In this document: piece after piece, positions 1 to 46,576 of the stretch
How positions within the stretch are numbered: the first letter of the stretch is position 1
Layout of the letters: the number at the start of each line of letters is the position of its first letter
IMG/VR virus record: IMGVR_UViG_3300025732_000004
DNA: 46,576 nucleotides
Direction: 5' to 3' (one strand)
Source: a virus
Program-made: the position numbers and the translations under genes
The notes under the pieces: model-generated
What the model was told of the DNA's origin: nothing
The model's database searches: none
The model's input: the letters and a program-made list of their open reading frames with translations, nothing else

Positions 1-127
1 CTGGTGCCGCCGCTGATGACGCCCAGTTGGTCGTCAACAATGACGCGCAGGCCGGCGAAGGTGTTGTAACCGACGCCGCTCAAGCCGGAGGCAGCTGAGA
101 CGGTGGAACCGCTCACCTGCACCTGCA
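1..127. repeat. Terminal direct repeat copy 1 (identical to 46450..46576); closure overlap of a circular or circularly permuted assembly
   Basis: Base-by-base comparison of both ends. The repeat lies inside one continuous capsid reading frame. Confidence 0.9.
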
Positions 128-764: not shown

Positions 765-791
765 GGCTCAAAAGTGCGGGGTTACCGTGGA

Positions 792-1540: not shown

Positions 1541-1551
1541 CCGAGGTTGCC
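1541..1551 (-). promoter_or_regulatory. Leader motif copy GGCAACCTCGG, 20 nt upstream of the scaffold GTG
   Basis: Read on the minus strand. Confidence 0.45.
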
Positions 1552-2640: not shown

Positions 2641-4212
2641 TCAGTTGGCATTGCGCCCAGGGCGGAGGGGGGTCTCCAGCGTCTGGCTGCTCAGTGACTC
2701 GCCCTGGCCGGCGCTGGGCGCTTGGAACGCCATGTCGGGACCGGCGGCGTTCAGGCGGTCCATCGCCTGTTGCTCCGCAAGGCGTTCGGCGGTGGCGCTC
2801 ACCTCCGCGTCGATGTCCATCGTGGCGGGTAACACCTCGCCGTCCTGCAAAATGCGCAGGAGCGTCTCCTGGCTGATCGCGCCCTGCATGTAGAGCTGGA
2901 GCATCGCCGTGATCTCGTTGCCGCTCAGCAGGCGGCTGTCGTAGTCGCGGGGGATGTGGACCGTGGGTGGCTCGATGCCCACGTACTCAGCCGCCAGCTC
3001 AAACAGCTGCGTGATGCTGCGCTCCAAGTCGCCGCTGATGACGGCCATGATCGAGTCGCTATCGACGCGATCAAGGCGGCGGGCCTCGGCGGCGGCGTTA
3101 GTGAGGTTGGCTTGGGTAAGGGTGTTGATGCCGAGGCGGCCGATCTGGTCCTCCAGCTCTTTGAGGCACTTGAGCTGGGAGTCGAAGGCTTCGGACGTGG
3201 GTTGCACCCATTCGGCGCCGCCATCTGGGGGCAAAAGCAGCGCTGTGTTGACGCTGATGCCGATGGGTGAGTCGGAGTCGGGGTCGAAGCCGCGTAGCAC
3301 CAGCATCGGGTTGGCGCCGACGTGGATGCTGTGGTGGAAGTCGCACCAGCGCTGCGCGTAGGCGATGCACAGATACGCCACTTCCTCCAGCGGGGGCGTG
3401 GACATCAAGTTGCCGGTGCGCTGGGCGTAGGTCGTCACCAGTGGGATGCGGCTCAAGCTGGTGCGGCCGCTGTCCACTAGCTCCCACTGGGGGCCCTGGC
3501 CGTAGGTGGTGGTCGTGGGACTGCGCCATAGCTCGTAGCCGCCCGGTGTCATCACGCGGATCTGGTCTTGTAGCTCCTCGCCGTAGGCGCCTTTGCTGGT
3601 GACCACGCGCTCGCGGATGCGTACCTGCGTCAACTCCGAGCTGGTGCTGTCGGTGGCTGTGCGCCAACCCAGGATCTGGGGCGGTGACACCGGCACCAAG
3701 TACGGCTTGCGGCGGAGGCGGCGCTCCTCGGCGAGGGTGCGGGGGGTGCCGTCGGCGGCGTAATCGACGATGGTGCTGCTGTGGCCGTACAGCAGGGCGG
3801 TGATCAGCTGGCGGCGGGCGTATTCGTTCAGGGTGGTGCCGTCGCCGCAGACGTCGAGGATCCACTGCTCCCAGTAGGGGTCGCCCTCAATGTGGATGCC
3901 TTTGCGCAGGATGATGCCGGCGGCTTGGCTGGCGAGGCGGTTCAGGAACGGGGGCAGCGTGGCGTGGAATATCCGGCGCTCGTAGCTCTCCTTGGCTTCC
4001 GAGGGTTCGCGGGGGACGATGCTCTCGGCGCGGGCGCGGAGGGCGCGGGTGCCGCCGACGCAAATGTCGATCGGCTCCCAATGCACCGCCATGTTCAAGA
4101 CGGCGCTGCTAAGAACGCTGGGGTCGTCGTTGTTGCCCTGCTGCAACAGACCCGGATACGGCGAAATGACGCGGGTGGGGTAGGTGCTATCGGCCACGCG
4201 GCGCCTAAACAC
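2641..4212 (-). CDS. Portal protein
   Basis: 523 aa. It lies between terL and the MuF-like gene, and its size and position are typical of a portal. The call rests on synteny rather than a recognised motif. Confidence 0.7.
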   Translation of the reverse strand: MFRRRVADSTYPTRVISPYPGLLQQGNNDDPSVLSSAVLNMAVHWEPIDICVGGTRALRARAESIVPREPSEAKESYERRIFHATLPPFLNRLASQAAGIILRKGIHIEGDPYWEQWILDVCGDGTTLNEYARRQLITALLYGHSSTIVDYAADGTPRTLAEERRLRRKPYLVPVSPPQILGWRTATDSTSSELTQVRIRERVVTSKGAYGEELQDQIRVMTPGGYELWRSPTTTTYGQGPQWELVDSGRTSLSRIPLVTTYAQRTGNLMSTPPLEEVAYLCIAYAQRWCDFHHSIHVGANPMLVLRGFDPDSDSPIGISVNTALLLPPDGGAEWVQPTSEAFDSQLKCLKELEDQIGRLGINTLTQANLTNAAAEARRLDRVDSDSIMAVISGDLERSITQLFELAAEYVGIEPPTVHIPRDYDSRLLSGNEITAMLQLYMQGAISQETLLRILQDGEVLPATMDIDAEVSATAERLAEQQAMDRLNAAGPDMAFQAPSAGQGESLSSQTLETPLRPGRNAN

Positions 4213-4220
4213 GGGTGTTA

Positions 4221-4233
4221 CCGAGGTTTCCGG
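4221..4233 (-). promoter_or_regulatory. Leader motif, exact CCGGAAACCTCGG (extended form CCGGAAACCTCGGTAACACCC), 8 nt upstream of the portal GTG
   Basis: Read on the minus strand. Confidence 0.55.
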
Positions 4234-4245
4234 CGAGGGGCGCCG

Positions 4246-4585: not shown

Positions 4586-5938
4586 TTAGTAGGTGCGGAA
4601 GTCGCTGCCGCCCGAGGCGTAGCGGCGCAGGGGGTTCAGGGCCCAGATCGCGTAGCCGGCGGCATCGACGGGGTGGCTGGGGTCGTCGAGGCCGGAGCCG
4701 CCTTTTTCTGGCTTGCCGCTTTTGTCGTATGCCTGTTGCTCCAGACTCTTGATCAGGTGCTTGCAGCGGGGGTGGACGCGGAGACGGTCGCTCATCAGCA
4801 GCACGTTCATCGCGTTTACGCGGTCCTCGATGGCGGGGTTGCTGCGTTGCTCCTTGAGGACGAAGCCGCCTTTGCGGAGGATGCTTAGGTCGCTCTCCTT
4901 GGCGTTGGTGGTGGTGCGTTGGCGGGAGGCGGCGTCGGGGATCACCACGACGTCGCCGCGTTCGTGCTGGGGTGCATAGCGCTCCTGCAGCAGTGACACG
5001 ATCGCGGGGGTGTCGCGGACAACGTGCTCCTCCACGAAGTGGAACTCGTTGCCGCGGCGTACCAAGACCTCGATCATGCAGTTGCCGACGTTGAGGTCAA
5101 TTCCGGCGTAGACGCGGTCTTCTGGGAGGACGCTTGCGTCCGACCAGTGGCGGTCGCGGTCAAAGTCCGGGTAGACGCTGGTGTTGGCGAGGTTGGTGAA
5201 CTCGCCCTCGATGTAGCTGCGGATTAGCTGGGGCGGGAAGTTGGCGTAGAGCGACTCGACGAAGCCCGGAGGGAGGTGCGGATTGTCGGTGGTCTTGGCT
5301 TTGATCAGGCGCCTGTCGCTGGCGTCGCTCTCGATGAAGGTGCGATACATCCACCGATAGCCCTCGGGCGTGGAGGCGACCGCGAGCTGGGGCTTGTTGC
5401 CGCCGCGGAGTCGCGCCAACACCATCTCGGAGGCTTTCTGGGCGACCTCCGTGGGGCTCGTGTCCACCTCGTCAATGCAGGCGAAGCTGAGGTTCTGGCC
5501 GCGGATGCGGTTCCATGTCTCCGTGGCACGGCACAAAATCGTGCAGGGGCCATGCGGCAGGTGCAGCGTGTAAATGGGCTGGGGTGAGATGCGGAAGTCG
5601 TAGGCGATGTTCTGCGCCTCCAGGAAGTCGTCGAAGCTCCGCACCCAGACGTCCAAAATCATCTGGAACGTCGGTTCAAACACCGCGCCGACGGTGTTGG
5701 GGTTGTCCATCGCCAGCGCCACCGTCTTGCAACACAGTGCGTGCGTCTTGCCGGCGCCAAAACCGGCGCAGTAGCCCACGATCTTCGCGTCCACTTCGTC
5801 CACGAAGGCACGCTGCGCCGGCAGCATTCCGCTTAAGAGCTGGTGCCGTAGCTCCTCGTACGTCTTGTCGCACCGCGTGTTCGTGATGATCGGCGGCTCT
5901 AAAACGCTGCCGCCCGAGATGACTCCGAGGATGGGCAC
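4586..5938 (-). CDS. terL: Terminase large subunit
   Basis: Walker A GYCAGFGAGKTHAL and Walker B-like LSFACIDEVD, followed by a C-terminal nuclease-type region. 450 aa. Confidence 0.9.
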   Translation of the reverse strand: MPILGVISGGSVLEPPIITNTRCDKTYEELRHQLLSGMLPAQRAFVDEVDAKIVGYCAGFGAGKTHALCCKTVALAMDNPNTVGAVFEPTFQMILDVWVRSFDDFLEAQNIAYDFRISPQPIYTLHLPHGPCTILCRATETWNRIRGQNLSFACIDEVDTSPTEVAQKASEMVLARLRGGNKPQLAVASTPEGYRWMYRTFIESDASDRRLIKAKTTDNPHLPPGFVESLYANFPPQLIRSYIEGEFTNLANTSVYPDFDRDRHWSDASVLPEDRVYAGIDLNVGNCMIEVLVRRGNEFHFVEEHVVRDTPAIVSLLQERYAPQHERGDVVVIPDAASRQRTTTNAKESDLSILRKGGFVLKEQRSNPAIEDRVNAMNVLLMSDRLRVHPRCKHLIKSLEQQAYDKSGKPEKGGSGLDDPSHPVDAAGYAIWALNPLRRYASGGSDFRTY

Positions 5939-5986
5939 GGGGCGCCGCCTGCAGCTTCTACGGCTGATTCTAGCTAGGTAGCTCGT

Positions 5987-6010
5987 GGGGGAGTGGGGGT
6001 AGGGGGAGGG
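5987..6010 (+). other. G-quadruplex-type motif GGGGGAGTGGGGGTAGGGGGAGGG
   Basis: Four G-runs (5, 5, 5 and 3 G) separated by 1-3 nt loops, read directly. It lies in the terL-proximal divergent intergenic region. Confidence 0.5.
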
Positions 6011-6235
6011 TGCGTGCGTAGGTAGTAAGTGGGGGTTGGTTATATCTAGGAGGCGCGGGGTATGGCTCTCCCCGCCGCGGCCGTTTGCCCGGGGGCAGGC
6101 CGGCGCCCGCGGCGCCCGCGGCGCCCGTGGCGCAAGCGATCCCGGCGGCTGCGCCTACTAGTGGCGGAGACTAATGCGGCTGGCGCGGTGTCAGAAACCC
6201 GGCGCGGATTGTCTGCGCGATCCGCGGCGCGGATA

Positions 6236-6266
6236 TTGGCAAACCTCCCTACATAGGTGATATCAT
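6236..6266 (+). promoter_or_regulatory. Candidate sigma-70-type promoter: TTGGCA, 19-nt spacer, TATCAT with an extended -10 TG
   Basis: ttggca at 6236-6241, tg at 6258-6259, tatcat at 6261-6266. An 8-bp inverted repeat (aacctccc 6242-6249 / gggaggtt 6277-6284) flanks it, and GCGCGGAT repeats (6202, 6227) lie upstream. Confidence 0.35.
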
Positions 6267-6418
6267 GGAGAAAGGCGGGAGGTTAGCGCTGGCGCAGCCG
6301 GTGCAACGGAGCCTCTCTAAAAGCCTTGCCCGCAAGCTCGACCCTTGCGGCTCTTGCGGCTCCGTTACCGGTTCAGCCGGCGCCATCCCTCCCGCCCCGT
6401 TCCACTGCTACCTGACCC

Positions 6419-6616
6419 ATGGCCACCACCTATGCCACCTTTCCGGACCTCGTGTACGACGGCGGCCGCTATGCGCAGACCGTCTGGCACGGCGCCAGCG
6501 TTGCCGATGCCGTAGCCGCCACGTTGCGCCTCACGCCCGATGCCGTCGTGATGCTGGCCAAGTCGCAAACAGAGCGCGTCGCCGGTTTCGGTCCCGCCGG
6601 TCTGGGCGCTCTGTGA
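6419..6616 (+). CDS. Hypothetical protein (65 aa), first gene of the plus-strand cassette
   Basis: ORF with balanced composition. Its stop overlaps the next ATG (ATGA). Confidence 0.5.
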   Translation: MATTYATFPDLVYDGGRYAQTVWHGASVADAVAATLRLTPDAVVMLAKSQTERVAGFGPAGLGAL

Positions 6617-6747
6617 TGGCGCGTCGCATCCTCGCCGGCGCCATTGCCGCCGTAGCGCTGGCGCTTTGGTCCGACATCCTCCGCCCAGGCGCCGTACCGC
6701 TCCGCGCCACATCCGGCGCCCCGATCCCCACGGCGCTAGCCGACTAG
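6616..6747 (+). CDS. Small membrane protein (43 aa, MARRILAGAIAAVALALWSDIL...)
   Basis: ATGA-coupled to the upstream ORF, with one hydrophobic helix. It is the in-frame tail of track ORF 6265..6747. Confidence 0.4.
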   Translation: MARRILAGAIAAVALALWSDILRPGAVPLRATSGAPIPTALAD

Positions 6748-6766
6748 CGCCCCCTCACTGCATAAC

Positions 6767-6783
6767 GGGCGCCGCTGGCGCCC
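6767..6783 (+). other. Perfect GC hairpin gggcgcc-gct-ggcgccc
   Basis: 7-bp stem and 3-nt loop, followed by ggcgcctttcc. Possibly a weak terminator or attenuator inside the cassette. Confidence 0.3.
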
Positions 6784-6831
6784 GGCGCCTTTCCTGCTAA
6801 CCACAATCCGGCGCACAGCGCCGCTCCTGCC

Positions 6832-7482
6832 ATGCCAACCACCAAACCCGCTCTAACCCTCACCATCACCACCACCAAGGGCCAGCGTGAGATCCCCGCC
6901 ATCTGGCGCGGTCGCAATATCGCGGTTCATGCGCGTTTCGCCAATGGCACGCTGTCGCCGCTGCGCGGTCAATACGGGATTACGCATCTCATCACCGGCT
7001 ACAGCTGCGGCGCCTTCCAATGCTCTAAGGCGCGTGTTCTGAAGCTGGCGCGGCTATGGGATACGCGTTTTGGCGACCTTACCGTCGCCGGTGCTGAGCG
7101 CAGCTGGCGCTACCGCGACACATATACGGCAGACGTTCGGCGCGTGATCGCTGGCGAGGCTCCGGAAGGTCCGGTGCTGCCCGACTTCCCCACTAGCGGC
7201 GACGTTGCCGCGGCCATCTCTCACGCCATCGGCGGCAGTTATGCGCCAGCGGCGCCCGATGATGCAGCAGCGCAATATCCGGCGCGCGAGACGGTAGCCG
7301 CTTCGCTGCTACGCGATGGCGCCGATAGCTTGGAGCTGCTGTGGCGCGGCAAGTGGTGGCCGGTGCCGACGTTCGGCGAGGTTGAAGCGTGGTGTTTCGA
7401 CAGCGTCGCCGAGACACCGGACGGACGCACGGTGGAATGTGACGCGCCGGACGCGTGGCCGCGGCTGCTAGGCGTCATTTGA
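6832..7482 (+). CDS. Hypothetical protein (216 aa) with a conserved-looking C-terminal ...ETPDGRTVECDAPDAWPRLLGVI tail
   Basis: ORF with normal composition. I recall the C-terminal D-G-x-x-V-E-x-D...W-x-x-L-L-G-(L/V)-I pattern from many uncharacterised phage and actinobacterial proteins; this is from memory and unverified. Confidence 0.6.
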   Translation: MPTTKPALTLTITTTKGQREIPAIWRGRNIAVHARFANGTLSPLRGQYGITHLITGYSCGAFQCSKARVLKLARLWDTRFGDLTVAGAERSWRYRDTYTADVRRVIAGEAPEGPVLPDFPTSGDVAAAISHAIGGSYAPAAPDDAAAQYPARETVAASLLRDGADSLELLWRGKWWPVPTFGEVEAWCFDSVAETPDGRTVECDAPDAWPRLLGVI

Positions 7483-7607
7483 CGCGCCGGCGCTACCCAA
7501 CCGCCTAGCGGGCGCTACGGCGCCCGCACCTAGTGCCATGCGCGCCGGCTGTCCCGGCGCGGCTTTGCGGTGCCGGCGTATAGCCGGCGCCCACTGCTAC
7601 GGGACAC

Positions 7608-8342
7608 ATGCCACGCACCACCACACAGCCGGCGCCAGACGTCGCTGGCTCCTATCGCTTCCACCTAACGGCGCGCAGCGCTAACGCCAAAACCGGCCCG
7701 ATACCGGTTTCGACATCGCCGGCGCAGACGTGTCCCACGGGCGACGTCTGCCCTTTTAAGGGCAATGGCTGTTACGCGGAACGGGGCCCGCTGGCGCTTC
7801 ATTGGCGCGCTGTCAGTGAAGGGCGCCGCGGTGTGCCGTGGGGCGCCTTTCTCAATGCGATCCGGGCGCTACCGGTGGGGACGCTATGGCGCCACAACCA
7901 GGCCGGCGACCTTTACAAGCCACAGACGGCTATCGGGCGCACAGCGCTGGCGGCGCTAGTCGACGCAAACCGCGGCCGGCGCGGGTTCACCTACAGCCAC
8001 CACCGGCGCACACCGGCGGTAGCGCAAGCGTTTTGCGCTGCTACCGCTAACGGCTTCACTGTTAACGCCAGCTGCCACAGTGAGGCAGAGGCAGACGCCG
8101 CCATCGCCAATGGCTTGCGCGCCGTGTTTGTGGTCGCCGCGGATGATCCCCGCACTATCTGGCGCACAGCTGGCGGCAACCGCGCCGTTGTCTGCCCGGC
8201 ACAGCGCTTTGATGCCATGACGTGCGAGCGGTGCCGTTTGTGTCATGCGCGGCCGCAGGAGGTGGCGGTGGTGTTCCGGGCGCACGGCACCGGTGCCGCT
8301 GCGATCGAACGCGCGATAGCCGCGGCCGGCGCCAATGGCTGA
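7608..8342 (+). CDS. Cys-rich phage protein, GP88-like (244 aa)
   Basis: AKTGPIPVSTSPAQTCPTGDVCPFKGNGCYA near the N-terminus and CPAQRFDAMTCERCRLCH near the C-terminus. This matches my memory of the GP88 family pattern. Function unknown. Confidence 0.5.
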   Translation: MPRTTTQPAPDVAGSYRFHLTARSANAKTGPIPVSTSPAQTCPTGDVCPFKGNGCYAERGPLALHWRAVSEGRRGVPWGAFLNAIRALPVGTLWRHNQAGDLYKPQTAIGRTALAALVDANRGRRGFTYSHHRRTPAVAQAFCAATANGFTVNASCHSEAEADAAIANGLRAVFVVAADDPRTIWRTAGGNRAVVCPAQRFDAMTCERCRLCHARPQEVAVVFRAHGTGAAAIERAIAAAGANG

Positions 8343-8778
8343 GCGGCACCGCGCCACTGACGCCGAGCGCCGCCAGCGGGAGGCGGACGCGCTGGCGCTG
8401 TTGAGCGCTGGAGCCGGTAGCGCCTTTGCGGCGCAGACGCTGGCGGAGCGCTACGGCTGCAGCCTGAGGCAAGCGCGCCGCTATGTGGCGGCCGCGTCCT
8501 TTGAGCTAGTAGAGCCAGCCACGCCGGCCGAGCTTGACCGACTGGCCATGCTGTCGTTGCACCGCTTGGATCTAGTGGCCGGCCGGGCGATGGCGGCCGG
8601 CGATGACACGCTGGCCGTGCGCGCTACGCGCGCGCAAGCTGCGGCGCTGGCGCAGTTCCGGCGCGCCATCACAGCGCCGGCCGTACGGTTCCGGCTGGCG
8701 GATGCCCGGCCGCTACCACGCGGCCAGCCGGCGCCGGGCGATGGCGCCGCGGATCCGGAGCCCATGCCATGGGACTAA
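8335..8778 (+). CDS. HTH DNA-binding protein (147 aa)
   Basis: The segment AFAAQTLAERYGCSLRQARRYVAAA is helix-turn-helix-like and is followed by a helical region. Last gene of the plus-strand cassette. Confidence 0.5.
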   Translation: MAERHRATDAERRQREADALALLSAGAGSAFAAQTLAERYGCSLRQARRYVAAASFELVEPATPAELDRLAMLSLHRLDLVAGRAMAAGDDTLAVRATRAQAAALAQFRRAITAPAVRFRLADARPLPRGQPAPGDGAADPEPMPWD

Positions 8779-8805
8779 GCCGGCTCCCCCGGCGCCCCAC
8801 CACTA

Positions 8806-8830
8806 GCGCCCCGGCATGGGGCGCCTTTTT
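8806..8830 (+). terminator. Rho-independent terminator of the plus-strand cassette
   Basis: gcgcccc (8806-8812), loop ggcat, ggggcgc (8818-8824), then c + ttttt (8826-8830). It starts 28 nt after the stop at 8778. Confidence 0.65.
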
Positions 8831-9191
8831 CATGCGCCGCCAGCGCCGGCCGCGGCTGTGCGCCATGGGCGGCGCTGGCGCCTTTTATGGCCTTGCTATG
8901 GCCGCCGCTGGCGCCGCGGTGCCGGTGCTGCGATCCGGTGCCCATGGCACGGGGCGGCGCCAGCGGCTGCCGCGCCGCGGTGCCGCTGTTGCGATTGCGT
9001 CTCAATAGCGTTAGCGCCCGTGGCTGTGGGCGGCTGTGGTTGGAGCGGCGCCGGTGGCACGAGGTGCCAGGCGCCGCAACGTCCACTGCTACGCAGACGC
9101 CCCCACGTTACCACCGCTGGAGCCGCCGCGGCCACCGGCGCTACCCCCACGATCTGGTGCCCAGCCGCTAGAGCCGCCAGAGCCATCCCCT

Positions 9192-9332
9192 TGAATGCGT
9201 TTTTGAGCCATGAATGGCATTACGCCATGAATGGCATTTGCGCGGTGAATGGCGCTGGCGCGGTGAATGCGTTTTGAGGCGGGGCGTGCCTTGAATGCGA
9301 ATCTGGTGCCCAGCAGCTCATGCAGTGAATGG
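9192..9332 (+). repeat. Iteron-like array: seven direct copies of TGAATG(G/C)
   Basis: Copies start at 9192, 9211, 9228, 9246, 9264, 9292 and 9326, all in the same orientation, with spacings of 19, 17, 18, 18, 28 and 34 nt. Longer sub-repeats: ccatgaatggcat x2 and gcggtgaatg x2. Confidence 0.8.
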
Positions 9333-9953: not shown

Positions 9954-9973
9954 GCGTTACGCTATGTTTCCCC
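9954..9973 (-). promoter_or_regulatory. Leader motif copy GGGGAAACATAGCGTAACGC, 10 nt upstream of ATG 9943
   Basis: Read on the minus strand; aligns with the tail-tube copy GGGAAACCTAGCGGTAACCC. Confidence 0.5.
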
Positions 9974-10799: not shown

Positions 10800-10829
10800 A
10801 GTATGCACCCTGGCTAGCTAGGTAGTCAA
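10800..10829 (-). promoter_or_regulatory. Candidate sigma-70-type promoter: TTGACT, 18-nt spacer, CATACT (minus strand)
   Basis: On the plus strand, agtcaa is at 10824-10829 and agtatg at 10800-10805. The spacer contains CTACCTAGCTAG. Confidence 0.35.
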
Positions 10830-10842
10830 GGGGGCGTAGCGG

Positions 10843-11169
10843 CTAGGTTGCGTCAGCAGCATCAGCCGCGTAGTAATGGCTCACTAGGTCATCCATGTCC
10901 CAGCTGCCATCAGCGTGGTGCCAGAAAATGGTGATCTCGGTAAGTACCTCCTGGGAGCCATCAGTGGCGGGGACGTGCTCCTCCAGCAGGGCGTCTAAGG
11001 CGCTATCGAGCTGGTGCCCTGTGATGATGCCTCTCAGTACAAAGGTGCGATCCTCCAGCGCGGTGGCGTAGCAGGCGGTGGGCCAATGCAGCACGATCGC
11101 GGTATGCGATACCGGTGGCTCGTCCATAAGCCGGTGCCAGAGCCTCCTGATGGCGTTGAGTGGGTTCAT
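10843..11169 (-). CDS. Hypothetical protein (108 aa)
   Basis: ORF with normal composition. Confidence 0.6.
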   Translation of the reverse strand: MNPLNAIRRLWHRLMDEPPVSHTAIVLHWPTACYATALEDRTFVLRGIITGHQLDSALDALLEEHVPATDGSQEVLTEITIFWHHADGSWDMDDLVSHYYAADAADAT

Positions 11170-12294: not shown

Positions 12295-12593
12295 GGTGTC
12301 TCGTAGCAGTGGTCGCCACGGCGTTCACGCGTCTCAAAGAAGCCGTCTAGCTCTGGGCAGCGGTCCATCAAGAGGCGGGCGTAGTACGCCGTGTGGTTGT
12401 TGTTCAGGCGGAAGGTGCGGGCGCTGGCGCTGGTGCGGAGCATCAGCTCATAGCGGCACACCTCCCACAACGCCTTGATGCCCCAGCGGTGAATGCCCCC
12501 GCGATACAGCTGGAGTGCCAGGCGCTCCAGCGTTTCGTAGATGTGTGGGTTCTGTTCGTGAAACTCCCAGAACGCACGCTCGTGGCGGTTCAT
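12291..12593 (-). CDS. Hypothetical conserved phage protein (start MNRHERAFWEFHEQNPHIY)
   Basis: The ORF's N-terminal extension to 12662 overlaps the upstream gene and looks non-coding. Confidence 0.55.
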   Translation of the reverse strand: MNRHERAFWEFHEQNPHIYETLERLALQLYRGGIHRWGIKALWEVCRYELMLRTSASARTFRLNNNHTAYYARLLMDRCPELDGFFETRERRGDHCYETP

Positions 12594-13247: not shown

Positions 13248-13472
13248 CTACCCAACCTGTGCAGGTAGGTCAACGCCGCTGAGGCTGGTGCTCTTGGTGG
13301 CTTCGCGGACCATGCGCTCGATGGCTTCGCTGCGGTTGATGCCGTTGTAGGCCGCGATGCGGGTGATCAGATCCCAGCACTCATCCGTCATGGACAGGCT
13401 TCTGCAGCGCTTGGGCGAGTTCCAGTGGGTGCGGGCTTGGCTGTCGCCCAGGCGGCGGGCACTGTCGGTCAT
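13248..13472 (-). CDS. Ribbon-helix-helix protein (74 aa)
   Basis: SLSMTDECWDLITRIAAYNGINRSEAIERMVRE has the RHH pattern. Confidence 0.5.
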   Translation of the reverse strand: MTDSARRLGDSQARTHWNSPKRCRSLSMTDECWDLITRIAAYNGINRSEAIERMVREATKSTSLSGVDLPAQVG

Positions 13473-19027: not shown

Positions 19028-19129
19028 CGCCTGTGGCTGCCTAGGCAAGCTCGGGGGTGCGCCCGGTTGGGATGACCCCTGAGACTCGGCTCCAGCGGCT
19101 GCAGGCGGCGCTGGAGATCGCCCAGCGCC

Positions 19130-23130: not shown

Positions 23131-23290
23131 CATCACCCGCTGCCACGGCATCGACTGCCACCAGAAACACCAGTGCGCCAGGCACACCGCGCCGGTCCCC
23201 GACAACGTGCTGTTGTCTTGGGTTGCCACATTGAACCCTGAGCGAGCGCACCTCTGCCCTGACTTCATCGCCACCCGCTCCGCTGACTAA
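23120..23290 (+). CDS. Small Cys/His-rich protein (about 56 aa, ...SDITRCHGIDCHQKHQCARH...LCPDF)
   Basis: My translation. Its stop TAA shares one nt with the sigma ATG (TAATG). Not in the track. Confidence 0.4.
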   Translation: MLSDITRCHGIDCHQKHQCARHTAPVPDNVLLSWVATLNPERAHLCPDFIATRSAD

Positions 23291-24405
23291 TGACAACCCG
23301 CCAGCCTCAGACCAAATCATCCATCTCTCAGTACCTCAACGAGATTGGGGCGCATCCGCTGATGTCACCCAGTGAGGAGATTGAGTGCGGCAGAGCCGTG
23401 AAGCGCATGACAGAGCTGAAACAGGAGGCGCAAGAACGCACCCTCACCAGCAAAGAGCGCCACGCCATCCGCCGCGGCGAACGCGCCAAGAAGCGTTTCA
23501 TCGAAGCCAACCTGCGGCTGGTGGTGCATTGCGCCAAGAAGTACGCCCGCAACTCGCTCCAGTTCACCGAGCTGGGCGACCTCATCCAAGAGGGCTCAAT
23601 CGGCTTGGTGCGGGCGGTGGAGCTGTTTGACCCCGAACGCGGCTACAAGTTCTCCACCTACGCCTACTGGTGGATCCGCCAGGCGATGACCCGCTCTATC
23701 GCTGTCACGGAGTGGGCCATCAAACGCCCATCCACCGTGGGAGAGCTGGCGATGCGGCTGCCCAAGCTGGTGCATACGCTCTCGCACGAGCTGGGGCGGA
23801 CGCCGACCTCCGCTGAGATCGCCAAGGCGGCCAAGGTTTCACTGAGCGAGCTGAACCTGATGTACGAACGGGGGCGGGGGCTGGTGTCCCTTGACGCCTC
23901 CGTCTTGGATCGCGAAGACGGCAGCGGCCTTATCGAGATCATCGCGGACCCCGCCTCCTTCAACAGCGAAGACAACGACGCCGCTCTGGATCTGGAGCTG
24001 AACGAGGCGCGGCTCATTCCCGTCATCGATCAGCTCACCGACGTGGAGCGCCGCATCGTTGAGCTGCGCTATGGGCTCAACGGCAATCAGCCGCAGGCGC
24101 TCAACGCCATCGGCAGGGAGATCGGCGTGTCACGGGAGCGCATCCGGCAGGTGCTGGAGCGGTCCATTCGCCGGATGCGCTTCCTGCTCAATCAGCCTGT
24201 GCTGCCCGGTAACCGTACAGACGAAGCACCAGCCGTAGAAGCCACGGAACACGCGCCGGAACGCAGTAATCAGGCGCTATGGGGGCATCTTGTGCTGGAG
24301 GGGTTGCCGCTTGCGACTCGTAAAGCACAGTGGCAATCTCCAGCTCCGCAATACGGTGCGTGGCCTTCTTCACAATGCTCTGATACAGCATCAGTTGCTG
24401 CGTGA
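23290..24405 (+). CDS. Sigma-70 family sigma factor with regions 1.2, 2, 3 and 4
   Basis: YLNEIGAHPLMSPSEE (region 1.2), FIEANLRLVVHCAKKY...DLIQEGSIGLVRAVELFDPERGYKFSTYAYWWIRQA (region 2), LTDVERRIVELRYGL...IGREIGVSRERIRQVLERSIRRMR (region 4). About 70 codons follow region 4.2. Confidence 0.9.
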   Translation: MTTRQPQTKSSISQYLNEIGAHPLMSPSEEIECGRAVKRMTELKQEAQERTLTSKERHAIRRGERAKKRFIEANLRLVVHCAKKYARNSLQFTELGDLIQEGSIGLVRAVELFDPERGYKFSTYAYWWIRQAMTRSIAVTEWAIKRPSTVGELAMRLPKLVHTLSHELGRTPTSAEIAKAAKVSLSELNLMYERGRGLVSLDASVLDREDGSGLIEIIADPASFNSEDNDAALDLELNEARLIPVIDQLTDVERRIVELRYGLNGNQPQALNAIGREIGVSRERIRQVLERSIRRMRFLLNQPVLPGNRTDEAPAVEATEHAPERSNQALWGHLVLEGLPLATRKAQWQSPAPQYGAWPSSQCSDTASVAA

Positions 24406-24535: not shown

Positions 24536-24575
24536 CGTGTCACAAAGCAACCTAGGGCTAACGCAAGGTTGCCCC

Positions 24576-26515: not shown

Positions 26516-26528
26516 CCAAGGTTTCCCC
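26516..26528 (-). promoter_or_regulatory. Leader motif copy GGGGAAACCTTGG, 18 nt upstream of the holin ATG
   Basis: Read on the minus strand, in the fibre-holin gap. Confidence 0.45.
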
Positions 26529-29903: not shown

Positions 29904-29915
29904 CCCTAAGTTGCC
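29904..29915 (-). promoter_or_regulatory. Leader motif copy GGCAACTTAGGG, 21 nt upstream of ATG 29882
   Basis: Read on the minus strand. Confidence 0.4.
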
Positions 29916-30722: not shown

Positions 30723-30733
30723 CCGAGATTGCC
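30723..30733 (-). promoter_or_regulatory. Leader motif copy GGCAATCTCGG, 2 nt upstream of ATG 30720
   Basis: Read on the minus strand. Confidence 0.45.
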
Positions 30734-31392: not shown

Positions 31393-31396
31393 GTGC

Positions 31397-31927
31397 CTAG
31401 GATTCCGCCGTTCGCAGCAGGTGGCCTGCCTCGATCCATCCCACGCCGGGGCGCTCGGGCAGCACAAAACGGTGCGTCAACAGCGGCTTGTCAATGTCGC
31501 GCATCAGCACATCGCCGCTGATGCGGCCCTGCACCAGCACCAAGCCGCCACGACAGTTCTGGCCTTCCCAGACCGGTGCCAACACCCACACTGCACCGTC
31601 GTCACTCTTGAAGGCGCGGGTCTCAGGTGTCGCCACCACCTCCTTGGCGGACGCCAAGATCTGGGGCCAGACCGTGAGCAACAGCGGCGGGTGGGCGTTC
31701 TCCGCCTTCAGCGCCAGCGCTACTGCCGCTACCTCCGGCTTGAAGGCGTCCTCGGCTCGCTCGCGTTCGCGGTAGCAGCAGAAGTCAGCAGCGCTGAACG
31801 GCTCCGGCTTGCGCTTGCTGTCGCGATTCAAGTTGGCGGTGAGCGCCATCATCTGGGCCTGCGGTAGTTCCGCAATGGCCGCGGCGTCGCGCTGGATCCG
31901 GTGCAGTTCGCGCCACGCCACCAACAC
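31397..31927 (-). CDS. Hypothetical protein (176 aa)
   Basis: ORF with a GTG start and a gggagg SD-like element upstream. Confidence 0.55.
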   Translation of the reverse strand: MLVAWRELHRIQRDAAAIAELPQAQMMALTANLNRDSKRKPEPFSAADFCCYRERERAEDAFKPEVAAVALALKAENAHPPLLLTVWPQILASAKEVVATPETRAFKSDDGAVWVLAPVWEGQNCRGGLVLVQGRISGDVLMRDIDKPLLTHRFVLPERPGVGWIEAGHLLRTAES

Positions 31928-34806: not shown

Positions 34807-34826
34807 CGCTTTGCCGCTAGGTTGCC
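34807..34826 (-). promoter_or_regulatory. Leader motif copy GGCAACCTAGCGGCAAAGCG, 8 nt upstream of ATG 34798
   Basis: Read on the minus strand, in the 30-nt gap after the 1217-aa gene. Confidence 0.5.
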
Positions 34827-42934: not shown

Positions 42935-42945
42935 GCGAGATTGCC
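42935..42945 (-). promoter_or_regulatory. Leader motif copy GGCAATCTCGC, 23 nt upstream of the tape-measure GTG
   Basis: Read on the minus strand; sits back-to-back with the plus-strand copy at 42947. Confidence 0.45.
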
Positions 42946-42946
42946 G

Positions 42947-42959
42947 CCGGAAACCTCGG
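42947..42959 (+). promoter_or_regulatory. Leader motif, exact CCGGAAACCTCGG, 2 nt upstream of ATG 42962
   Basis: Read directly. Confidence 0.55.
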
Positions 42960-42961
42960 TC

Positions 42962-43351
42962 ATGGCTTCCGCTCTCTCCGCTTTATCCAACGCCACCGCC
43001 ACTTTTCAGGTGGCGGGCACGGGCGTGGTCACTGACCCGGAAACAGGGAACGTGTCGCCCGCGGGAGCCACGGTCACAGTGGCGTTGTTCCTGAGCGCCG
43101 CACAGACGCGGGTGCTGCGGTACCCAGGAGTTGATACCACGGAGACCGTCTACGAAGGCTATGCCTTGGACGCGCTAGACCCTCGTATTGAGATCGGCGT
43201 TACAGGTGTCCTGACGTTTGCGGGGGAGCCGACGCTTGATTGCGAAGTGCGCTCTGTTCGTCTGCCTTACGGGAAGACGGGGCTGCTCGGCGAGACCCTC
43301 AACAGCGTGCTTGGCGAGAAGGTGCAGCTGGTGAGCAGAGGCCAAGCGTGA
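42962..43351 (+). CDS. Hypothetical head-tail joining-region protein (129 aa from ATG 42962; the track TTG start is 42941)
   Basis: ORF with good composition, in the opposite orientation to the surrounding structural genes. Confidence 0.55.
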   Translation: MASALSALSNATATFQVAGTGVVTDPETGNVSPAGATVTVALFLSAAQTRVLRYPGVDTTETVYEGYALDALDPRIEIGVTGVLTFAGEPTLDCEVRSVRLPYGKTGLLGETLNSVLGEKVQLVSRGQA

Positions 43352-44390: not shown

Positions 44391-44410
44391 GGGTTACCGC
44401 TAGGTTTCCC
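44391..44410 (-). promoter_or_regulatory. Leader motif copy GGGAAACCTAGCGGTAACCC, 15 nt upstream of the tail tube ATG
   Basis: Read on the minus strand, in the 36-nt gap. Confidence 0.55.
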
Positions 44411-44411
44411 T

Positions 44412-44966
44412 CTAGGCGCAGTCCTCGGCTTCCAAAACGTCCCATGGCGTGGGGCGGGGGCAGACGTAGAGGTCGAAGCCGCGCACGTCGTGGTCTGTGG
44501 GGCTGGTGGCCACTAGCGCCAACTTCACCTGCTCCTGCGTCACGCCCAGCTCTATGCACACCTCGGGCAGGGCGCGGCCACGCTCCAGCATCTTTCGCGC
44601 CAGCTGCCCGATCCGGCGTACAGCGCCTGGCGCCTTCACAGACCAGTTGCCGTCCCGGATGAAGTGCAGCACGTCGCCCTCGCTGAAGGCGGTGAGGAGC
44701 GTGGAGAAGCGGCCCTTGGCGGGGTCGAAGGCGCGGCAGCACTTCACAAACGCTTGGTCAATGCAGCTAAAGACGTCGCTGCTATCGACGAAGGGGTACT
44801 TGCGGCACAGCTTGCGGCCCAGCAGGCGCAACAGCCCTTGGTGTTCGCGGTACATCCGCGCCACATGGCGCTGCTCTTCCGGTGTCAGTGGCGTGGCTAA
44901 GTAACCGGTGCGGGGGCGTCGCCGGACCGGTTGAGCACTACCTGTAGTGGGGGTGCAGTTTGCCAT
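44412..44966 (-). CDS. Sigma-70 region 2/region 3-like protein lacking region 4 (184 aa)
   Basis: LLRLLGRKLCRKYPFVDSSDVFSCIDQAFVKCCRAFDPAKGRFSTLLTAFSEGDVLHFIRDGNWSVKAP...GRALPEVCIELGVTQEQV aligns with regions 2 and 3 of the 371-aa sigma in this window (LVVHCAKKY...[21 protein letters not shown]...IKRPS...GRTPTSAEIAKAAKVS). The protein ends before any region 4. Confidence 0.6.
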   Translation of the reverse strand: MANCTPTTGSAQPVRRRPRTGYLATPLTPEEQRHVARMYREHQGLLRLLGRKLCRKYPFVDSSDVFSCIDQAFVKCCRAFDPAKGRFSTLLTAFSEGDVLHFIRDGNWSVKAPGAVRRIGQLARKMLERGRALPEVCIELGVTQEQVKLALVATSPTDHDVRGFDLYVCPRPTPWDVLEAEDCA

Positions 44967-44997
44967 CCACTACCCATAGTAGCGGCTAGATGCGTAC

Positions 44998-45582: not shown

Positions 45583-45595
45583 CCGAGGTTTCCGG
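45583..45595 (-). promoter_or_regulatory. Leader motif, exact CCGGAAACCTCGG, 15 nt upstream of the connector ATG
   Basis: Read on the minus strand. Confidence 0.55.
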
Positions 45596-45738: not shown

Positions 45739-45751
45739 CCGATCTTTCCGG
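45739..45751 (-). promoter_or_regulatory. Leader motif copy CCGGAAAGATCGG, 9 nt upstream of ATG 45729
   Basis: Read on the minus strand. Confidence 0.45.
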
Positions 45752-45757
45752 TGTCGG

Positions 45758-45769
45758 GGCAACTTCGGG
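45758..45769 (+). promoter_or_regulatory. Leader motif copy GGCAACTTCGGG, 19 nt upstream of ATG 45789
   Basis: Read directly; sits back-to-back with the copy at 45739-45751. Confidence 0.45.
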
Positions 45770-45788: not shown

Positions 45789-46088
45789 ATGACTGAAAAC
45801 GCCCCCGAAATCAGCAACGAGCTGGTGTCAGAAGCACCTAAGCCGGTGCGTAAGAAAGCGGCGAAGGCGGCTCCTGCGGCTGAGGGTGGTGGGAAGCGCG
45901 ACTGGCAGAAGGTGGTGCCTGAGATCCGGCGTTTGCGCGATGAAGGGCGCAATGTGCCTGAGATCGCGGAGGAGCTGGAGTTGCCCTACGTGCTCGTCAA
46001 TCAGGTGATGCTCCAGAGCTACAAGATGACCGTCAACACCATTGAGCACTTTGAGCGGCACGAAGAGCGTCGCATTGCTGGGGAGTGA
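45789..46088 (+). CDS. Small HTH protein (99 aa from MTENAPEISNE)
   Basis: VVPEIRRLRDEGRNVPEIAEELELPYVLVNQVM resembles a sigma region 4 or resolvase-type HTH. The upstream part of the track ORF (from 45678) looks non-coding. Confidence 0.5.
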   Translation: MTENAPEISNELVSEAPKPVRKKAAKAAPAAEGGGKRDWQKVVPEIRRLRDEGRNVPEIAEELELPYVLVNQVMLQSYKMTVNTIEHFERHEERRIAGE

Positions 46089-46099
46089 GGCATAAAAAA

Positions 46100-46120
46100 G
46101 CCCCCGCTTGTGGCGGGGGC
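46100..46120 (-). terminator. Rho-independent terminator after the major capsid gene (between convergent genes)
   Basis: gcccccgc (46100-46107), loop ttgtg, gcgggggc (46113-46120). The aaaaaa at 46094-46099 gives a U-run on the minus strand. Confidence 0.7.
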
Positions 46121-46136
46121 CTGAGTGATTCGCAAC

Positions 46137-46576
46137 TCAAGCGTAGGTGCCGCTGTCGTATGCCGTGTTGACGAGCATCCGCACCAGAGGCACGTTCTTG
46201 GCGTTCTGGTAAGCCAAGGCCCAAGAGCCGGTGGCGCCCAGGTTGCCGGTGGTTGCCAGGTTGCTGGGGTTGTCGCCGGCGGCGGCCCAGCGGGTGCCGT
46301 TGACGTGGTAACCGTAGTGGTAGTCCACGATCAGCAGATCCTGGAAGGACGGCTTGTTGCGGTCCGTCTCCAGACGCAGCTCCTGCTGCACACCTTCGGC
46401 AATAACGCCGGAGCCGAACAGGTACACGGGGTACTTGTTCAGGTGGGTGCTGGTGCCGCCGCTGATGACGCCCAGTTGGTCGTCAACAATGACGCGCAGG
46501 CCGGCGAAGGTGTTGTAACCGACGCCGCTCAAGCCGGAGGCAGCTGAGACGGTGGAACCGCTCACCTGCACCTGCA
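46137..46576 (-). CDS. Major capsid protein, 3' part (the non-redundant part is 46137..46449)
   Basis: ORF 46137..46571 continues the frame that starts at 764; see the feature at 1..764. Confidence 0.8.
   Translation of the reverse strand, partial: QVQVSGSTVSAASGLSGVGYNTFAGLRVIVDDQLGVISGGTSTHLNKYPVYLFGSGVIAEGVQQELRLETDRNKPSFQDLLIVDYHYGYHVNGTRWAAAGDNPSNLATTGNLGATGSWALAYQNAKNVPLVRMLVNTAYDSGTYA
46450..46576. repeat. Terminal direct repeat copy 2 (identical to 1..127)
   Basis: Same as copy 1. Confidence 0.9.

Follow-up and report, generated by a model that had tools for sequence, protein, structure and literature searches.

Recurrent GGMAAYCTMGG elements before the late genes of an uncultured siphovirus: candidate promoters of a small phage sigma factor

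The late arm and the sites of the motif

The subject of this study is a short asymmetric motif with the consensus GGMAAYCTMGG, which recurs just upstream of the virion and lysis genes in a stretch of viral DNA of 46,576 nucleotides (IMG/VR virus record IMGVR_UViG_3300025732_000004), hereafter called the window. The first and the last 127 bases of the window (1-127 and 46450-46576) form an identical direct repeat, and because of these identical ends the contig is regarded as a closed circle of ~46.4 kb; the G+C content of the window is 64%. Its terminase, portal and capsid share 31-43% identity with those of the cyanosiphoviruses S-2L, S-H1 and KBS-S-2A, which are the nearest isolates, and a nucleotide-level search of a phage collection with the window matched no relative. 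The source phage is an uncultured siphovirus, distant kin of the cyanosiphoviruses. Neither an Rfam scan nor a tRNA scan of the window gave a match.

The late arm is long and runs on the minus strand in the order terminase (start at 5938), portal, MuF-like protein, scaffold, capsid, adaptor, tail tube, tape measure, tail genes, a holin-like gene and the lysozyme (26082-24907), where the capsid gene crosses the contig ends, from 764 over the junction to 46137. Directly after the capsid gene there is a strong intrinsic terminator (46098-46122, minus; a 10-bp stem with 8 GC pairs and a T run), and therefore the neck and tail genes downstream need a new promoter. Two small plus-strand genes are embedded in this arm, one of 129 amino acids (42962-43351) and one of 99 amino acids (45789-46088). 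The latter lies antisense to the late arm just past the capsid terminator and is kept in both clades of related phages (43-74% identity); the C-terminal half of its product looks like a helix-turn-helix (HTH) (IRRLRDEGRNVPEIAEELELPYVLVNQ), with no family match and no PDB sequence match. Elsewhere in the genome there are a replication block (primase-helicase, PD-(D/E)XK nuclease, SSB-like protein) and a plus-strand arm with PolA, a tyrosine recombinase and an RpoD-like sigma factor of 371 amino acids (23290-24405).

In the head module, the sequence GGAAACCTCGG at 4221-4231 (minus) lies 26 nt before the portal GTG at 4197 and is kept in the related contigs L001, L081, L083, L085 and L109; the initial annotation had started the portal at the alternative GTG 4212, with the motif 8 nt off, and the start at 4197 is likelier from GTGGCNGATAA, which is conserved in the relatives. 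A second site, GGCAACCTCGG at 1541-1551 (minus), is found 23 nt before the scaffold GTG 1520, and relatives keep it as well. A hairpin with a T run (GGCTGTAGTTCCAGCC-TTTTGT, 1527-1542, minus) can be seen between this motif and the scaffold start; it is not conserved in relatives and probably incidental. On the other side of the capsid gene, GGAAACCTCGG occurs again at 45583-45593 (minus), 18 nt before the ATG 45567 of the head-tail adaptor gene, which matches PHROG 477, adaptor. Nearby, a weak variant, GGAAAGATCGG (score 8.8; 45739-45749, minus), 12 nt before a basic open reading frame (ORF) of 43 amino acids, stands back-to-back with the plus-strand site GGCAACTTCGG at 45758-45768, which lies 23 nt before the ATG 45789 of the antisense 99-amino-acid gene.

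Along the tail genes the same element goes on. The tail tube ATG 44375 has GGAAACCTAGC 26 nt before it (44399-44409, minus), a site kept by relatives, and the tape-measure GTG 42911 has GGCAATCTCGC, also at 26 nt (42935-42945, minus). The tape-measure site is one half of a divergent pair kept in L083, L085, L109 and L213, the other half being GGAAACCTCGG at 42949-42959 (plus), where the ATG 42962 falls on motif position 13 in a leaderless geometry; this spacing is kept in relatives (d=5 in 11 unique contexts). Further on, GGCAACCTAGC at 34816-34826 (minus) is located 20 nt before the ATG 34798 of a 143-amino-acid gene; GGAATCCTAGG at 31396-31406 (minus) overlaps the stop codon of the upstream gene and has the ATG 31392 at motif position 14, as do the orthologous sites of L162 and L197; GGCAATCTCGG at 30723-30733 (minus) has the ATG 30720 at position 13; and GGCAACTTAGG at 29905-29915 (minus) precedes the ATG 29882 of a 139-amino-acid gene by 25 nt. 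At the lysis end, GGAAACCTTGG at 26516-26526 (minus) is found 21 nt before the ATG 26497 of the 59-amino-acid holin-like gene. The motif-like GGCAACCTTGC at 24563-24573 (minus) lies 3' of the lysis genes, with a comparable site in L197/L198, and is an arm of an inverted repeat (24546-24573, AGCAACCTAGGGCTAACGCAAGGTTGCC) which consists of two motif-like halves between the end of the RpoD-like sigma gene and the lysis genes; possible readings of this repeat are a bidirectional hairpin and two weak sites that converge. Outside the late arm, GGCAAGCTCGG at 19044-19054 (plus), just past PolA and with the GTG 19057 at position 13, is the sole strong site in the early/middle arm and is kept after PolA in L196 and L197, and a weak variant, GGAAACATAGC (score 9.5; 9961-9971, minus), stands 20 nt before the ATG 9943 of a 200-amino-acid gene, where the L197 ortholog is strong.

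The repeat of the motif in front of virion and lysis genes is confirmed as real. The pattern GGMAAYCTNG has 11 matches in the window, as compared with 1.44 +/- 1.27 in 100 dinucleotide-preserving shuffles of the window, none of which reached 11. All 8 matches to the strict form GGMAAYCT(0-2)YGG lie just 5' of a start codon, and 10 of the 13 GGMAAYCT octamers fall into gene junctions, in a genome with only 14% of non-coding DNA. Moreover, all ten junction octamers are co-oriented with the downstream gene, just as the initial annotation had claimed. The fifteen sequences which it listed are all present where it placed them and on the right strand; its list was nevertheless incomplete, having missed the sites at 31396-31406 (minus), 19044-19054 (plus) and 24563-24573 (minus), and two of its entries are not retained. 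One of them, at 10839-10851, is a weak match (score 8.4) beside a sigma-70-like promoter and probably not a site, while the supposed half site before the capsid gene (779-787) is a separate element that is also present in relatives without the motif. The bias to late genes was confirmed too, since of the 13 window matches scoring above 13.5 there are 11 directly 5' of late-region genes (virion or lysis genes, or the two embedded plus-strand genes) and 2 inside late genes, and next in rank (score 13.0) comes the sole match in the early/middle arm. In agreement with the earlier claim, the early genes at 6832, 7608, 16956 and 19510 have no upstream match scoring above 7.

As to the capsid-proximal element itself, CAC-G(G)TAA(A)CC is located 14-19 nt before the capsid ATG in the window (779-787, minus), in L085 (~9940) and in L106 (~3595), and the same element is observed in S-2L (L161, 25570) and KBS-S-2A (L207, 24964). 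It is motif-like, but it ends with C instead of T.

For the comparison with relatives, ~80 contigs were collected via the capsid and others via the terminase, PolA and the sigma factors, with gene starts taken from a simple in-house gene caller. The motif is found at the matching junctions of dozens of these contigs, always in the same direction as the gene. Conservation at syntenic junctions, which had been proposed as a check, was in fact found for the portal, scaffold, adaptor, tail tube, tape measure and several tail and lysis genes. A weight matrix seeded with the pattern of the initial annotation was refined on 161 non-redundant upstream regions of relatives, among which 68 carry the sense motif, as compared with 0-1 in shuffled controls and 26 for the reverse complement; the latter are taken as largely the partners of divergent pairs. 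The refinement and the two kinds of controls guard against circularity from the seeding. The refined motif is an ungapped 11-mer, c-GG-(A/C)-A-A-C-(C/T)-T-(A/C)-G-g, with a weak A-rich patch at positions 13-15. In the 68 non-redundant sites the A at position 3 and the T at position 7 are each invariant to 96%, and the G two bases past the T is conserved to 98%. Its spacing to the T being constant, CCT-C-G-G and CCT-A-G-C share one register, and the variable gap of 0-2 nt in the earlier pattern is not needed. A tandem GGNAAC direct repeat (GGAAAC...GGTAAC) was also considered and dropped, for it holds at few sites only. When the motif strings were looked for in the full text of the literature, nothing but primers and unrelated papers came up.

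Two sigma genes and the exchange of motif and canonical hexamer

The genome has two sigma genes, as the initial annotation had claimed. The smaller one (44412-44966, minus) is located between the adaptor and the tail tube and encodes a protein of 184 amino acids with sigma2 and sigma3 and no sigma4. This protein matches PHROG 351, sigma factor, at 1.6e-8, and its PDB sequence matches are of the sigma B/F type, aligned over regions 2.3-3.1 of those structures. Pfam recognised no sigma in the copy of the window; among the homologues, several carry Pfam Sigma70_r2, and the Joint Genome Institute (JGI) names some of them 'specialized sigma subunit'. A protein search with the sequence gave 143 matches at E <= 0.001, and the 120 listed span 132-196 amino acids. 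The AlphaFold model (mean predicted local distance difference test, pLDDT, 77.5) consists of four domain-2 helices and three domain-3 helices that end at residue 153, followed by a disordered tail with one short helix and no domain 4, and all of the 50 top matches listed by Foldseek against the PDB are sigma factors. Judged by sequence and by this modelled fold, the 184-amino-acid protein is a sigma factor without domain 4.

Our results revealed that the motif goes together with this gene. Among loci that include the stretch past the capsid, the 32 with the small sigma gene have 0.24-0.71 strong motif matches per kb (mean 0.44), whereas the mean is 0.02 in 35 loci without it, where a locus was scored as lacking the gene only if at least 2.5 kb is present after the capsid. 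Likewise 35 of 61 upstream regions from phages with the small sigma gene contain GGMAANYT, as against 0 of 89 from those without. What stands in its place is a canonical hexamer: in the sigma-less relatives the distance from the last T of a TAnnnT hexamer to the start codon peaks at 22-25 nt, the slot that the T of the motif takes in the sigma-bearing phages (20-26 nt), and the hexamers at the corresponding junctions are TAAACT, TAACCT, TAGAAT and TAGACT. The sigma-less phages comprise a sister clade with capsids ~64% identical and a nested subclade, L091 and L105-107, with capsids 75-77% identical, which in the capsid tree falls inside the sigma-bearing clade. Compared with the window, this subclade has a terminase of 69%, a portal of 56-60% and a scaffold of ~50% identity, and canonical hexamers precede its head genes. 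Conversely, in distant phages whose small sigmas are 54-55% identical, GGnAAACTAGG is retained 22-26 nt from the starts. As for the cyanophage isolates, KBS-S-2A has TAAACT-type elements ~24 nt before several late genes, two of them directly behind a terminator, and the motif was not found at the gene junctions of S-2L and S-CBS1.

These data bear on a proposal of the initial annotation that the sites are stoperator-like repressor sites, as in cluster A mycobacteriophages. They would then be roadblocks, at which a repressor recognising asymmetric sites halts elongation in the lysogen. The sites are indeed numerous asymmetric 11-13-mers in short junctions, co-oriented with transcription, and a tyrosine recombinase gene is present. 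However, they are nearly all late, with one in the early/middle arm; they keep fixed distances to the start codons; and they track a sigma gene and not a repressor, none being recognised in the window apart from weak HTH hints at 8335-8778 and 45789-46088. Moreover, the consensus is kept across capsids of ~70% and small sigmas of 54% identity, and canonical -10 hexamers substitute for it in relatives. We therefore regard roadblocks as very unlikely.

The small sigma gene itself has no motif. A canonical -10-like hexamer, TACTAT (44976-44981, minus), stands 9 nt before its ATG, and 17 of 22 non-redundant relatives have a TAnnnT hexamer 5-6 nt 5' of the start, a spacing which matches the geometry of the motif sites with the start at position 13/14. 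The large terminase gene has no motif either; instead there is the canonical hexamer TAGAAT (5967-5972, minus) 28 nt before its GTG 5938, and relatives have TAACCT or TACCCT there. In the replication block, sigma-70-like promoters are TTGACC-17-TAGGAT at 13273 and TTGACT-18-CATACT at 10829. We propose that such canonical promoters are read by the larger sigma (23290-24405, plus), in which Pfam finds regions 1.2, 2, 3 and 4. The key residues of its regions 2.3/2.4 and 4.2 are identical to those of a cyanobacterial SigA, and the residues reading -12 and -35 are as in primary sigmas; its region 3.0 differs from that of cellular sigmas, the equivalent of H455 being T. In a profile search of viral contigs with this sigma, the best 80 of more than 568 matches include none from contigs without the small sigma gene.

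This larger protein, or else a host sigma with another phage factor, could itself read the motif as a -10-type late promoter, the 184-amino-acid protein being employed otherwise. It is conserved in the phage group and lies beside the lysis end of the late region, its region 3.0 divergence (H455 to T) could change the reading of an extended -10, and it possesses region 1.2, the part of sigma-70 that contacts the discriminator. On the other side, primary-type residues at -12 and -35 suit TAnnnT and TTGACA better than a -35-less GG-MAAYCT; the cyanosiphoviruses with related RpoD-like sigmas (S-CBS1, KBS-S-2A and, with a sigma fragment, S-2L) are without the motif; and the motif tracks the small sigma gene. 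Such a reader is thus rather improbable in our view, and the 184-amino-acid protein is preferred.

Register of the motif and the reading of the sites

Two classes of sites can be told apart by how far the T of the motif lies from the start codon. One class has a distance of 18-26 nt, peaking at 23-24; in the second, motif position 13/14 is the first base of the start codon (ATG 42962, 30720 and 31392, and perhaps GTG 19057); the second class is kept in orthologues. From -60 to -1 relative to the motif no position exceeds ~0.2 bit, so there is no conserved -35 partner in this range. At both divergent junctions in the late region two motifs stand back-to-back, 1-8 nt apart in the window and each facing its own gene, and this arrangement, conserved in relatives, leaves no space for a -35 element. 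In one of them, a junction of only 50 bp, each of the two genes nevertheless begins a transcription unit; together with the capsid terminator, the divergent pairs mean that transcription units need promoters exactly at the motif positions. In general 3 of 209 motif sites are directly behind a terminator. The small sigma, having no domain 4, would be unable to read a -35 element, which agrees with the missing -35 of the motif.

It is known that in sigma-70 promoters independent of -35 the key positions are G(-14), A(-11), T(-7) and a discriminator G. The invariant positions of our motif coincide with them, which supports an extended -10/discriminator register, and direct support for the -10 register comes from the TAnnnT hexamers that occupy the same slot in relatives. 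In this register, motif positions 2-7 would fill the -10 hexamer (-12 to -7), which puts the invariant A at -11 and the invariant T at -7; the pair of Gs in front would form the extended -10 region (-14/-13), and the near-invariant G two bases past the hexamer would lie in the discriminator. According to a remark in the initial annotation, the core recalls -35 elements of the extracytoplasmic function (ECF) type. In such a register GGMAAC with its AAC motif would be the -35, a degenerate -10 would lie near the start, and genes at 20-26 nt would have leaderless transcripts. The core is indeed like the GGAAC/TGAAAC -35 boxes of ECF sigmas, and the 28-34 nt from the first G to the start codon are near a -35 geometry. 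However, a conserved partner is missing 16-17 nt further on (all positions from +16 to +30 stay at or below 0.16 bit); genes with the start at position 13/14 would be transcribed from well within the ORF; the conserved T (position 7) and G (position 9) have no counterpart in a -35 box; relatives have a -10 hexamer in the homologous slot; and of the two sigmas the small one is without domain 4 and the large one is RpoD-like, not ECF. This is the least credible of the explanations weighed here.

Much the same evidence can be used to ask whether the motif acts in the mRNA, either as a translation enhancer or operator independent of the Shine-Dalgarno (SD) sequence, or as an endoribonuclease site that trims a long late transcript into units with short leaders. 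The strict co-orientation with genes would fit, as would the position in short junctions right after stop codons and 18-26 nt from the starts of SD-less genes. In fact the leaders show no SD signal, with an SD-like tetramer of any kind in only 15 of 63. Nevertheless the motif itself has neither a GGAG core nor complementarity to the anti-SD, its spacing is bimodal (5-6 nt vs 18-26 nt), and folding of eleven sites gave no common structure and no excess stability (z -0.95 to +1.05). An action in the mRNA would also leave unexplained the DNA -10 hexamers in the same slot of relatives and the link to a sigma gene, and the 50-bp divergent junction would still require two promoters. The RNA operator suggested by the initial annotation, as well as its wider forms, is hence disfavoured and seems about as improbable as a reading by the RpoD-like protein. 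A likeness to 16S helix 45 or the anti-SD region was also considered and dropped, being inconsistent across sites.

Taken together, the motif is probably the core of -35-less late promoters that are read by the 184-amino-acid phage sigma. This favours the late-promoter reading of the initial annotation, which is backed by the presence of two sigma genes, the co-occurrence with the small one, the replacement of -10 hexamers and the starts at position 13/14. As for the mechanism, the reader would be the host core RNA polymerase with the 184-amino-acid sigma-like protein, and transcription would start ~6-7 nt past the T, at motif position 13/14. The mRNAs of three or four genes would then be leaderless and those of the others, with start codons at motif positions 21-34, would have leaders of ~5-21 nt, and the SD-less genes would be translated from the 5'-proximal start codon. 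A cascade of two steps can be imagined: the host sigma and/or the RpoD-like sigma would read the TAnnnT promoters that precede the early genes, the large terminase gene and the gene of the small sigma, and then the small sigma would read ~13-16 motif promoters before the virion and lysis genes. A stronger statement is possible, though on balance we hold it doubtful: that a two-domain sigma from the neck region alone redirects the host RNA polymerase to an 11-nt element, so that transcription starts 0-20 nt before a dozen late genes; that the placement of this start, and not an SD, selects the translation start; and that sister lineages have switched their late-promoter set with gain or loss of the gene.

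Several points weigh against the preferred reading by the small sigma. The promoter function, the position of the transcription start and the identity of the reading sigma, as well as the leaderless status of some mRNAs, we infer from the sequence comparisons, and the RpoD-like sigma could be the motif reader instead. In the hexamer, position -12 is A or C rather than T, and position -8 is C. The co-occurrence is partly confounded, for the tail tube, the 129-amino-acid plus-strand gene and the tail module co-vary with the small sigma, so that the association is with a module and the independent transitions are few and linked. In addition, the capsid-proximal motif-like element, GGTAAACCC, is present with or without the small sigma gene, and the narrow spacing of 18-26 nt to the starts would suit an RNA-level element as well. 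Finally, both Comamonadaceae and picocyanobacteria are candidate hosts: the closest cellular homologues of the RpoD-like sigma are cyanobacterial; the related contigs L208, L209, L210 and P0207 occur in metagenome bins labelled Gammaproteobacteria, Rhodoferax and Limnohabitans; and a capsid scan of bacterial genomes gave only metagenome-bin contigs (labels Gammaproteobacteria and Rhodoferax), which are probably mis-binned phage contigs.

Besides the motif, the window contains other recurrent elements. The 17-mer CCACTGCTACNNGACMC has 3 copies vs 0 expected, at 6402-6418 (plus), 7591-7607 (plus) and 12296-12312 (minus), each ending 1-2 nt from the start of an early or island gene (6419 plus, 7608 plus and 12294 minus), and is a distinct start-associated element. 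The 12-mer CTACCTAGCTAG has 2 exact copies vs 0.04 expected, of which one (5970-5981, minus) overlaps the terminase TAGAAT and the other (10814-10825, minus) lies 3' of the TTGACT -35 box of the promoter at 10829; this 12-mer is a possible operator. Words of the CTACCT type are recurrent in early junctions, and of the 184 GGCGCC copies in the whole genome 54 lie in non-coding DNA, a strong enrichment. Between minus-strand blocks there is a plus-strand island (6000-9300) with a 216-amino-acid ORF, a DUF7227 protein and a 147-amino-acid ORF with weak matches to HTH and 'late transcriptional activator'; GC-rich hairpins are seen around its genes, and the island may be a moron or a lysogeny module. 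In the relative L214 (6058-7802 and 8233-9171), a diversity-generating retroelement (bAvd, reverse transcriptase and Lcl_C target-like genes) and a tyrosine integrase sit between the capsid and the adaptor.

Comparison with known phage systems

If the preferred reading is true, it defines a sigma/promoter pair, GGMAAYCTMGG with a sigma of ~146-190 amino acids without domain 4, in widespread uncultured siphoviruses, and provides a case for -10/discriminator recognition re-specified without -35 contact. The related head modules, which hold either the motif or a canonical -10 in the same slots depending on the sigma gene, are a natural experiment. The pair would be compact and possibly orthogonal, with a potential use in synthetic biology, and it would give an annotation rule for late transcription units and start codons in SD-poor genomes. 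T4 and SPO1 already provide examples of a phage sigma with simple late promoters, and what is new here is thus a variant of a known phage strategy rather than a new principle.

Two systems of mycobacteriophages resemble ours in the arrangement of the sites. The cluster A stoperators are likewise many asymmetric sites of ~13 bp in junctions, co-oriented with transcription; they are repressor sites over both the early and the late arms and are not bound to a start-codon distance, whereas the sites here are late-specific, keep fixed distances and are linked to a sigma gene. The start-associated sequences (SAS) of cluster K are likewise a recurrent 13-mer just 5' of a subset of starts. However, SAS contain an SD core and lie 3-8 nt from the start codon, while our motif has no SD core and is 18-26 nt away or has the start at position 13/14.

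Closer in register are the extended -10 promoters of sigma-70 with a G-rich discriminator, which need no -35 and have the same G(-14), A(-11), T(-7) and G two past the hexamer. They differ by having TG where GG is found here and T where A/C is found at -12, and the conserved C at -8 belongs to our motif; moreover, the specificity of the motif appears tied to a dedicated phage sigma, unlike ordinary extended -10 promoters. In the SPO1 cascade (gp28, then gp33/gp34), phage sigmas successively redirect the host RNA polymerase, and here, in a comparable way, a canonical promoter precedes the late sigma gene. The late promoters of SPO1 carry both -35 and -10, whereas only a -10-type element is found here, with the late sigma gene within the structural module.

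The T4 late promoters have ~50 copies with an 8-bp box at -10 and no conservation at -35, and gp55, which reads them, is a very small diverged protein of the sigma family (PMC2988020). The likeness consists in many short, simple late promoters at -10 on either strand with no -35, together with a small sigma-family protein without domain 4; there are ~13-16 sites here and ~50 listed in T4. On the other hand, the A+T-rich TATA box TATAAATA of T4 is unrelated to the G+C-rich GGMAAYCTMGG, and the 184-amino-acid protein has recognisable domains 2 and 3 of the group-3 type. The Pfam and PHROGs scans of the ORFs gave no gene for a gp33-like co-activator or a gp45-like clamp, no dedicated search having been made. 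T4 is moreover a myovirus, while the phage here is a siphovirus with its sigma gene inside the structural module. Even so, judged by analogy, the closest functional counterpart of the system described here would be T4 late transcription, with its TATAAATA box read by gp55 together with gp33 and gp45.

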